This document shows positions 1 through 774 of a stretch of DNA of 774 nt, one piece after another (the stretch's first letter is position 1; every line of letters begins with the position of its first letter). This stretch comes from a phage: sequence record MK370061.1. One strand, 5' to 3'. The translations under genes were made by a program, and so were the position numbers. The notes under the pieces are model-generated. The model made no database searches, was not told the DNA's origin, and was given only the letters and a program-made list of their open reading frames with translations.

Positions 1-774
1 ATGACTATTTCTACTGATACTACTCTTCTTCATGATCCTCGTCGTCAGGCTTCTCTTCTTTATTGGCAGGGTTTTTCTGTTCCTCAGATTGCTGAGATGC
101 TTCAGGTTAAACGTCCTACTGTTCAGTCTTGGAAACAGCGTGATGGTTGGGATGGTATTGCTCCTATTTCTCGTGTTGAGTCTTCTCTTGAGGCTCGTCT
201 TATTCAGCTTATTGCTAAACCTCAGAAATCTGGTGGTGATTTTAAAGAGATTGATCTTCTTGGTCGTCAGATTGAGCGTCTTGCTCGTGTTAATCGTTAT
301 TCTCAGACTGGTAATGAGGCTGATCTTAATCCTAATGTTGCTAATCGTAATAAAGGTGAGCGTAAAAAACCTAAAAAAAATTTTTTTTCTGATGAGGCTA
401 TTGAGAAACTTGAGGAGCTTTTTTTTGATCAGTCTTTTGAGTATCAGCTTCAGTGGTATCGTGCTGGTCTTGCTCATCGTATTCGTGATATTCTTAAATC
501 TCGTCAGATTGGTGCTACTTTTTATTTTTCTCGTGAGGCTCTTCTTCGTGCTCTTAAAACTGGTCATAATCAGATTTTTCTTTCTGCTTCTAAAACTCAG
601 GCTTATGTTTTTCGTGAGTATATTATTCAGTTTGCTCGTCTTGTTGATGTTGATCTTACTGGTGATCCTATTGTTATTGGTAATAATGGTGCTAAACTTA
701 TTTTTCTTGGTACTAATTCTAATACTGCTCAGTCTCATAATGGTGATCTTTATGTTGATGAGATTTTTTGGATT
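1..774 (+). CDS. Phage terminase large (ATPase) subunit, P2 GpP-like family; N-terminal 258 codons, 5'-complete (ATG at nt 1), 3'-truncated by the window end
   Basis: Seen in sequence: frame +1 is open from ATG at nt 1 to nt 774 with no stop; the other two + frames hit stops within the first 15 nt (tga at 2-4, tga at 15-17). Manual translation begins MTISTDTTLLHDPRRQASLLYWQGFSVPQIAEMLQVKRPTVQSWKQRDGWD and continues to ...GAKLIFLGTNSNTAQSHNGDLYVDEIFWI. From established knowledge: an N-terminal HTH segment followed by a KSRQxGxT-type deviant Walker A and an hhhDE Walker B about 80 residues later is the layout of terminase large-subunit ATPase domains. The family assignment is from recall, not a database search. 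No nuclease domain is present because the window ends first. Confidence 0.85.
   Translation, partial: MTISTDTTLLHDPRRQASLLYWQGFSVPQIAEMLQVKRPTVQSWKQRDGWDGIAPISRVESSLEARLIQLIAKPQKSGGDFKEIDLLGRQIERLARVNRYSQTGNEADLNPNVANRNKGERKKPKKNFFSDEAIEKLEELFFDQSFEYQLQWYRAGLAHRIRDILKSRQIGATFYFSREALLRALKTGHNQIFLSASKTQAYVFREYIIQFARLVDVDLTGDPIVIGNNGAKLIFLGTNSNTAQSHNGDLYVDEIFWI
52..153 (+). other. Encoded N-terminal helix-turn-helix-like DNA-binding segment of the terminase (aa 18-51, SLLYWQGFSVPQIAEMLQVKRPTVQSWKQRDGWD)
   Basis: Seen in translation: a short helix (SVPQIAEML), a turn with basic residues (QVKRP), then a second helix (TVQSWKQR), bracketed by aromatic residues. This is typical of small HTH modules at the N-terminus of GpP-like terminase ATPase subunits. 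Boundaries are approximate. Confidence 0.5.
373..388. repeat. Perfect 16-nt self-complementary homopolymer palindrome A8T8 (aaaaaaaatttttttt) inside the CDS
   Basis: Seen in sequence at nt 373-388, produced by codons aaa aaa aat ttt ttt t(ct) encoding K-K-N-F-F-S. A second T8 run lies at nt 419-426 (ctt ttt ttt, encoding L-F-F). Both follow directly from the one-codon-per-residue coding. They would be unusual and mutationally unstable in a native gene. Confidence 0.9.
496..519 (+). other. Encoded deviant Walker A / P-loop of the terminase ATPase (aa 166-173, KSRQIGAT)
   Basis: Seen in translation: KSRQIGAT. It resembles the SRQLGKT Walker A of T4 gp17, but the canonical GK[ST] lysine is alanine, and a lysine sits at the N-terminal end of the motif, as in the lambda gpA-type deviant Walker A. 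A YQ pair (aa 148-149, nt 442-447) lies 17 residues upstream, where terminases carry an adenine-binding Q-motif. Confidence 0.6.
745..762 (+). other. Encoded Walker B-like motif of the terminase ATPase (aa 249-254, DLYVDE)
   Basis: Seen in translation: hydrophobic LYV followed by the acidic pair DE, about 80 residues after the Walker A. Spacing and form fit a terminase Walker B (hhhDE). The downstream coupling motif would lie beyond the window. Confidence 0.5.

Follow-up and report, generated by a model that had tools for sequence, protein, structure and literature searches.

A Lysine-First Walker A Motif in the Packaging ATPase of Phage 186 and the P2 gpP Family

Introduction

Terminases with a 'deviant' Walker A motif, in which the lysine stands at the start of the P-loop, were reportedly described by Mitchell and Rao in 2004 (Virology 321:217). 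The abstract of that work reportedly treats the lysine at the N-terminal end as a possible three-dimensional equivalent of the one in GKT/S.

In bacteriophage λ the motif takes the form K-xxxx-GY-S, and the phosphate-binding lysine lies at its N-terminal end (PMC13595956). This precedent bears out the statement, made in the first-pass annotation of the DNA analysed here, that large terminases include deviant Walker A variants with an upstream lysine. When the eight residues of the motif are numbered from 1 to 8, the Walker A sequences of the solved terminases of T4 (LSRQLGKT), P74-26 (LGRQSGKS), and Sf6 (GGRGSGKS) have no lysine at position 1, and that of λ (KSARVGYS) has one there (Table 1 in PMC6379665). 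The HK97 terminase carries an additional Walker A lysine upstream, K57, which proved essential and has been modelled at the γ-phosphate (PMC9410871).

In this work, we describe the Walker A motif of the P2 gpP homologue of phage 186, with a particular focus on its register, its conservation, and the lysine at its first position.

The Window and the Encoded Protein

The window, i.e., the whole stretch of DNA that was analysed, is 774 nt long and has frame +1 as its sole open frame, with no stop codon and no ORFs in the other frames. For each amino acid, a single codon is used throughout (e.g., CTT for 26/26 Leu and CGT for 20/20 Arg), which identifies the window as a mechanical back-translation, unlike natural DNA. 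Its nucleotide identity to the native 186 gene is 75%, and its GC content is 37% vs. 55% in that gene. The codon usage and the recoding rule out treating the window as natural DNA with respect to ORFs, composition, or comparison with the native gene; since the information sits in the protein alone, analysis at the DNA level was abandoned.

The 258-aa product is 100% identical to aa 1–258 of Orf12 (589 aa) of Escherichia phage 186, which is labelled 'terminase subunit; Orf12; P2 P homolog' in entry U32222.1 and is referred to below as 186 P. The identity between P2 gpP and the window product is 92%. In the 186 genome, the gene adjoins the portal gene and is divergent from the scaffold/capsid operon, and V, T, and R lie on its other side. 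The full protein consists of a Terminase_5 helix-turn-helix (HTH) domain, a Terminase_6N ATPase (E 6e-60), and a Terminase_6C nuclease (E 2e-43) according to Pfam, which is the architecture of P2 gpP-type (Peduoviridae) terminases. Residues 12–69 also match HTH_23/HTH_28 and, weakly, small-terminase PHROGs, and the HTH helices span residues 13–22, 27–34, and 38–48 in the AlphaFold model. The Terminase_6N score is 94.8 bits for the window, against a cut-off of 22, and 203 bits for the full protein, where the match extends over profile positions 2–215 of 215. The window ends four residues past Walker B, and the rest of the ATPase domain (C-motif and lid) and the RNaseH-like nuclease lie beyond it. 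The features within the window are collected in Table 1.

Table 1. Features of the 774-nt window, with nucleotide coordinates and the basis of each assignment.
Feature	Coordinates (nt)	Strand	Basis
Back-translated CDS, aa 1–258 of phage 186 Orf12 (P2 gpP homologue, large terminase)	1..774	+	Codon usage, 100% protein identity
N-terminal HTH DNA-binding domain, aa 12–69, Pfam Terminase_5 'gpP-like'	34..207	+	PF06056, E 3e-27
Y148-Q149, counterpart of T4 gp17 Y142-Q143, upstream of the P-loop	442..447	+	hhalign
β-strand 1, aa 161–166, leading into the P-loop, K166 as last residue	481..498	+	DSSP on AlphaFold model
First half of Terminase_6N, aa 164–258 (profile positions 2–108 of 215)	490..774	+	PF03237, E 8e-27 (window)
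K166 codon, proposed relocated phosphate-binding lysine	496..498	+	Conservation; motif position as in λ K76
Walker A/P-loop KSRQIGAT, aa 166–173	496..519	+	Pfam coordinates, hhalign, HMM alignment
Post-P-loop helix, aa 172–187, A172-T173 as first residues	514..561	+	DSSP on AlphaFold model
Walker B strand and catalytic carboxylate, D249-L-Y-V-D253-E254 (T4 gp17 MIYID255-E256)	745..762	+	hhalign

KSRQIGAT as the P-Loop of the Packaging ATPase

The motif KSRQIGAT, encoded by AAATCTCGTCAGATTGGTGCTACT in frame +1 at nt 496–519 (aa 166–173), has no GK[ST] lysine, as the first-pass annotation had noticed, and the residue numbers given there, K166 and A172, agree with the translation of the window. 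A scan of the 589-aa 186 protein found neither the classical [AG]xxxxGK[ST] nor GK[ST] anywhere. The protein contains a single instance of the bare pattern K-x4-G-x-[ST], yet 10% of shuffles of the 258 residues also yield one or more; the pattern being this weak, the significance of the motif rests on its position and on homology.

The Pfam coordinates provide the first alignment to T4 gp17. Position 2 of the Terminase_6N profile corresponds to aa 164 of 186 P and to aa 158 of T4 gp17, and the constant offset of six residues puts 186 K166 on T4 L160 and 186 A172 on the canonical lysine, T4 K166. The same register was obtained with hhalign, in which a profile of 54 gpP sequences matched T4 gp17 with a probability of 72% and E 3.5e-5, and the register was unchanged with a profile of 45 sequences. 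In these alignments, LYVDEIFWIPNF of 186 is paired with MIYIDECAFIPNF of T4 gp17, and the pairs include ILKSRQIGAT/CNLSRQLGKT, FEYQ/RDYQ, and FSTP/TTTP. In this register, R168 corresponds to T4 R162, the P-loop arginine, and G171 to the conserved glycine; T173, the counterpart of T4 T167, would bind Mg2+.

A third alignment was made with an HMM of the gpP ATPase domain, which at E<1e-3 recognizes 64 ORFs of T4-like terminases in IMG/VR. A lysine falls on gpP column 172 in 59/59 of those covering the motif; as these ORFs were picked via the motif itself, it is the flanking motifs that provide an independent test here. Upstream of the P-loop, Y148-Q149 is a pair which we take to be the adenine-binding or Q motif. 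Q149 is present in 52/54 full-length family members and is aligned to Q in 58/58 T4-like terminases, while D253-E254 is aligned to D/E in 63/63 of them. In the AlphaFold model, strand 249–253 ends with Walker B. The C-motif S283-T284, beyond the window, is aligned to T4 T286-T287, and its residues are conserved in 52/54 (S283) and 51/54 (T284) full-length terminases. Thus, the Q motif, Walker B, and the C-motif are all in register with T4 gp17 and at the right spacing.

The predicted structure is consistent with this register. In an AlphaFold2 model built on a full-length homologue of 98% identity, strand 161–166 is followed by a short loop and by helix 172–187. The pLDDT of the ATPase region is about 80–97, with block means of 85 for residues 161–170 and 92 for residues 171–180. 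The best Foldseek matches are T4 gp17 (3cpe, E 4e-12) and the terminases Sf6 gp2, D6E, P74-26, and HK97, which confirms the ASCE ATPase fold.

The first-pass annotation had named an alignment placing the P-loop elsewhere as one of the results that would speak against its reading. A coincidental register, with the true nucleotide-binding loop in another part of the protein, gains something from the frequency of the bare pattern in shuffled sequences and from the PDB sequence searches, in which phmmer and a profile hmmsearch returned HTH proteins only and no terminases. The latter result reflects the distance of the gpP family from the solved terminases, a gap that is bridged by Pfam, hhalign, and Foldseek. 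Pfam, hhalign with two profiles, and the alignment of 59 T4-like terminases to the gpP HMM concur in placing the P-loop at KSRQIGAT, the predicted strand-loop-helix fits, the three flanking motifs are in register, and the rest of the protein offers no other GK[ST], all of which makes a coincidence hardly credible. The comparison with T4 gp17, which had been proposed as a check, therefore confirms the register: the packaging ATPase of 186/P2 has KSRQIGAT as its Walker A P-loop, in which alanine replaces the usual lysine. As for membership in the T4-type Terminase_6N family, the profile, the fold, the P-loop arginine, Walker B, and the C-motif are all present. By lacking the G-K-[ST] lysine, 186 P deviates from the motif that is usual in the family, and its fold and profile match are unaffected.

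Conservation of the Motif in the gpP Family

Among 54 full-length terminases with 31–74% identity to 186 P, K166, R168, G171, D253, and E254 are each found in 54/54, and T173 and R162 are each found in 53/54. Position 172 is occupied by A in 38 of these proteins, L in 6, F in 5, G in 2, and M, Y, and W in 1 each, and never by K or R; no other of the motif's eight positions varies as much. The acceptance of the bulky residues F, W, and Y implies that the pocket may have been remodelled. In an alignment of 45 sequences with 44–98% identity, K166, R168, Q169, I170, G171, A172, and T173 are invariant. The motif is also recognizable in distant Peduoviridae, as K139 and HP1 carry KSRQIGAT, ACA1 carries KPRQIGAT, and an uncultured phage carries KPRQVGGT.

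A broader sample was obtained by an exhaustive HMMER search with residues 142–258 against 1.84 billion representatives of 50%-identity clusters. Merely 373 clusters were matched at E<=1e-3, which indicates that the gpP family is compact. Among the matches listed, 134 representatives cover the motif, and 131/134 have K at position 1. The three exceptions are short ATPase-only proteins of 167–259 aa, unlike the full-length terminases. At position 7, the same 134 listed representatives have A101, L13, F8, M4, T2, G2, S2, W2, Y1, and D1, and never K; the single D belongs to a degenerate sequence. In 122/122 IMG/VR loci position 1 is likewise K, a residue that the search pattern itself demands. The family is also sharply bounded. 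When cultured phages were searched by tblastn with the ATPase and nuclease domains, allowing E-values of up to 1, no GKT-bearing intermediates were found, and the E-values leap from 9e-82 (H96) to about 0.3–1 (H97–H100).

The invariance of K166 means that this residue behaves like a catalytic one. P-loop NTPases that lose their Walker A lysine are usually inactive, so the replacement in 186 P might be read as decay, leaving an ATPase domain that has degenerated to little or no activity and has a role in nucleotide binding or structure only. Some 250-aa ATPase-only paralogues are indeed further decayed, with GAD for GAT and with VYLGE or VYVSE as Walker B. The full-length terminases, in contrast, have kept the remaining motifs, as the counts given above for R168, G171, T173, D253, and E254, as well as for Q149, S283, and T284, demonstrate. 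Moreover, a gpP-family protein is the sole large terminase in hundreds of functional P2-like phages, packaging needs an ATPase, and the annotated genes of the head module examined here (terminase subunits, scaffold, capsid, and portal) include no other candidate. A degenerate enzyme is thus very improbable.

Two Positions of the Lysine

The relation between the lysines at positions 1 and 7 was examined by codon-pattern scans of IMG/VR, in which the codon restrictions were identical among the patterns. The pattern K-S-R-Q-h-G-A-T was found at no fewer than 120 loci, with 122/123 ORFs matching the family HMM, and L-S-R-Q-h-G-K-T was found at 114 loci, 75 of which are verified terminases. The pattern with both lysines, K-S-R-Q-h-G-K-T, was found at 8 loci, which is near the roughly estimated chance number. 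When position 1 was left free (S-R-Q-h-G-K-T-T), it was K in 0/147 verified terminases, the residues there being L66, A57, C8, S5, V5, and a few others.

At the level of clades, the position-1 and position-7 lysines are mutually exclusive. This exclusion contrasts two clades, the gpP family and the T4-like terminases, and should accordingly be counted as a single event in evolution, or as two when λ is included, rather than as a series of independent ones. Three of the eight loci with both lysines (KSRQLGKT) belong to one real terminase lineage, whose ORFs of 774–795 aa match phrog_32359 with E 5e-36. The position-1 lysine can therefore coexist with the canonical one, and it might have another role.

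Proposed Role of K166

In P-loops such as that of Ras, the amino group of the canonical lysine lies against the backbone carbonyls of the first residues of the loop. A side chain that starts from position 1 is, for this reason, spatially close to the same site. The mechanism that we propose begins with the loss of the canonical lysine after the conserved glycine (A172) and the fixation of K166, the last residue of strand 1, in its stead. The side chain of K166 would span the mouth of the loop and bring a positive charge to the β- and γ-phosphates of ATP, taking over the part of the GK[ST] lysine in the way proposed for K76 of λ gpA. The loss of K166, rather than a change at position 172, should then abolish ATPase activity and packaging. 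Judging from conservation and from the analogy with λ, K166 is probably the functional, phosphate-binding lysine of this family. A literature search found no mutational data on the P2 or the 186 terminase.

Other sources of the positive charge have to be weighed. KSRQIGAT may be the P-loop while the charge is provided by R168 in cis, by an Arg or Lys of the neighbouring subunit of the pentameric motor acting in trans, or by a monovalent cation, with K166 kept for a different purpose such as the subunit interface, a lid contact, or regulation. R168 is indeed invariant and R162 nearly so (53/54), trans-acting fingers are documented for the P74-26, D6E, and phi29 motors (PMC5727402), and cation-assisted mechanisms have been discussed for HK97 (PMC9410871). 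The lineage with lysines at both positions 1 and 7 also shows that a lysine may stand at position 1 without replacing the canonical one. The distribution of the basic residues, however, favours K166. R168 and K198 (the latter in SASKTQ) align to R and K/R, respectively, in classical T4-like terminases; being equally present in GKT-bearing enzymes, neither accompanies the loss of the lysine, and both were rejected as compensatory donors. R162 was rejected as well, as it lies four residues earlier on strand 1, at the end that the AlphaFold model and the topology of P-loops would place away from the loop. Within the loop, no basic residue other than K166 is both invariant and specific to the family, and none of the 147 classical relatives has this lysine. 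We consider a donor other than K166 somewhat unlikely.

A more elaborate history may also be envisaged, in which the P2/186 clade made a lysine swap of its own within the T4-type lineage (position 1 from Leu to Lys, position 7 from Lys to Ala), independently of λ and possibly via a KSRQLGKT-like intermediate with two lysines. The phosphate pocket would have been remodelled to tolerate Phe, Trp, or Tyr at position 7, and K166 would be more than a simple stand-in, namely a finger-like residue that is gated, with its insertion dependent on the assembly of the motor. Taken jointly, this set of events is unlikely.

Significance

Lysine-first Walker A motifs of terminases have been known since 2004, and the 186/P2 case, although real, is an ordinary one that should not surprise a specialist. 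The variant is of a known kind, the phage protein has long been known, and the case itself is possibly already known; a full-text literature search for 'KSRQIGAT' found no mention, the 2004 alignments being outside its reach. For motif-based annotators, it is a warning that the gpP family is a terminase family without GK[ST]. The family also represents a clean natural experiment, as its P-loop is nearly that of T4 gp17 with the lysine moved by six residues. A lysine-swap comparison of T4 gp17 and P2 gpP is thereby suited to probing how the geometry of the P-loop is coupled to DNA translocation. The practical value lies in the choice of K166 or E254 for ATPase-dead mutants.

Comparison with Known Systems

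The name 'deviant Walker A' is also used for the motif KGGxxGK[ST] of ParA, MinD, and NifH, which resembles that of 186 P in this name and in an N-terminal P-loop lysine. ParA/MinD-type ATPases retain the GK[ST] lysine, and their extra signature lysine acts across the dimer interface. KSRQIGAT has neither the canonical lysine nor the GG, and its assignment to this type was rejected.

The closest likeness in family terms is to T4 gp17, the archetype of Terminase_6N, which shares with 186 P the Terminase_6N and Terminase_6C domains, the fold, the SRQ[IL]G-x-T core, the P-loop arginine, and the flanking motifs in register. The two differ in the motif itself: position 1 is Leu in T4 gp17 but Lys in 186 and P2, and position 7 is Lys in the former but Ala in the latter. 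Furthermore, 186 and P2 carry the gpP-type N-terminal HTH, for which T4 gp17 has no Pfam match. The terminase of HK97 (K57 and K60) is similar in that an upstream P-loop lysine is, by experiment, essential and can reach the γ-phosphate (PMC9410871). HK97, however, has kept the canonical lysine, and its extra lysine stands three residues upstream of it, at position 4, vs. six residues, at position 1, in 186.

With Lys at position 1, a non-basic residue at position 7, and a position-1 Lys conserved like the catalytic residues, the motif of 186 P is a lysine-first terminase Walker A. It shares with λ gpA (K76-S-A-R79-V-G-Y-S83) the pattern K-x4-G-x-[ST] with a non-basic position 7, as well as the proposed solution of a position-1 lysine that binds the phosphates (PMC13595956). 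The P-loop arginine stands at position 4 in λ gpA and at position 3 in 186 P. The proteins also differ in family, as λ gpA consists of the Pfam domains GpA_ATPase (PF05876) and GpA_nuclease, neither of which is matched by 186 P, and hhalign of the gpP profiles against λ gpA gave no alignment in the ATPase domain. The label 'λ gpA-type', which the first-pass annotation had used, therefore holds for the motif pattern and fails for the family, which is Terminase_6N/6C; 'λ-type' denotes a resemblance of motifs and makes no statement of homology. The lysine-first Walker A common to λ gpA and 186/P2 looks convergent.

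ATPase-Only Paralogues of the Large Terminase

Between its terminase and portal genes, phage 186 encodes a paralogue of its large terminase, Orf12, that comprises only the ATPase part. This protein, annotated as "W protein; similar to Orf12", shares 37% identity with residues 125-371 of Orf12, matches the Pfam family Terminase_6N with an E-value of 3e-19, and retains both the Walker A motif KSRQIGAT and the Walker B sequence VYLDE. Phage P2 is devoid of a counterpart of the W protein gene. The same tandem layout occurs at three IMG/VR loci (L076, L086, and L089), where two motif matches lie exactly 1400 nt apart, and proteins of about 250 aa with the ATPase-only architecture make up at least a dozen clusters at 50% identity. 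Some of these short proteins have a degenerate motif, either Walker A (GAD replacing GAT) or Walker B (VYLGE or VYVSE), and in some the lysine at motif position 1 has been lost, as in the homologues P0367 (cysteine) and P0381 (asparagine).

Coordinates of the features described in the text
Feature	Location	Strand	Remarks
N-terminal HTH	window 34-207		aa 12-69
A and T runs	window 364-388
R160 and R162	window 478-486		strand 1, upstream of the P-loop
A172 site	window 514-516		usual place of the P-loop lysine
W protein gene	L001:4770-5516		phage 186 locus; 248 aa; lies beyond the window, directly following the terminase gene
Double-lysine terminase ORF	L011, contains 3007-3029	minus	IMG/VR locus

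N-Terminal Region, Database Names, and Recoded DNA

The large terminase begins with a helix-turn-helix (HTH) that resembles the DNA-binding domains of small terminases and of sigma-70 region 4; it weakly matches PHROGs 1889, 509, and 2606 (all small-terminase families), the NCBIfam model TerS_not_xtmA, and sigma-factor entries of the PDB. The stretch connecting the HTH to the ATPase is made up of a long helical segment and a basic linker modelled with lower confidence (aa ~101-120, including NRNKGERKKPKK), whose two 10-residue blocks have mean pLDDT values of 65 and 60.

Many copies of the gpP-type terminase in NCBI and GenBank records are named "oxidoreductase", among them the homologues P0002, P0017, P0019, P0023, P0037, and P0064, as well as the cultured-phage records H60 and H68. 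This label looks like a propagated misannotation.

The DNA of the window (1-774) is a back-translation in which a single codon is used for each amino acid (Leu CTT, Arg CGT, and Ser TCT throughout, for example); its GC content is 37% versus 55% in the native phage 186 gene, and nucleotide identity between the two is only 75%. The A and T runs, like any DNA-level feature of the window, are a recoding artefact.

Variation and Conservation Around the P-Loop

Across the family homologues, the A172 site varies more than any other position of the motif. Besides alanine and glycine, it accepts bulky side chains that are hydrophobic or aromatic (L, F, M, W, and Y), which suggests that this family makes different use of the space in which the lysine side chain usually lies.

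Both lysines coexist in one terminase lineage, with proteins of about 780 aa at the IMG/VR loci L011, L012, and L015; their Walker A, DSKSRQLGKTQ, has a lysine at position 1 and the canonical one at position 7. These proteins match phrog_32359 (E-value 5e-36) and have no match in Pfam; one of them sits on a 254-kb viral contig. The lineage could serve as a model for an intermediate state of the lysine swap.

The two strand-1 arginines, which may contact DNA, belong to a subunit interface, or serve another role, are highly conserved in the family, R160 in 44 and R162 in 53 of the 54 full-length terminases compared; T4 gp17 has a threonine aligned with R162.
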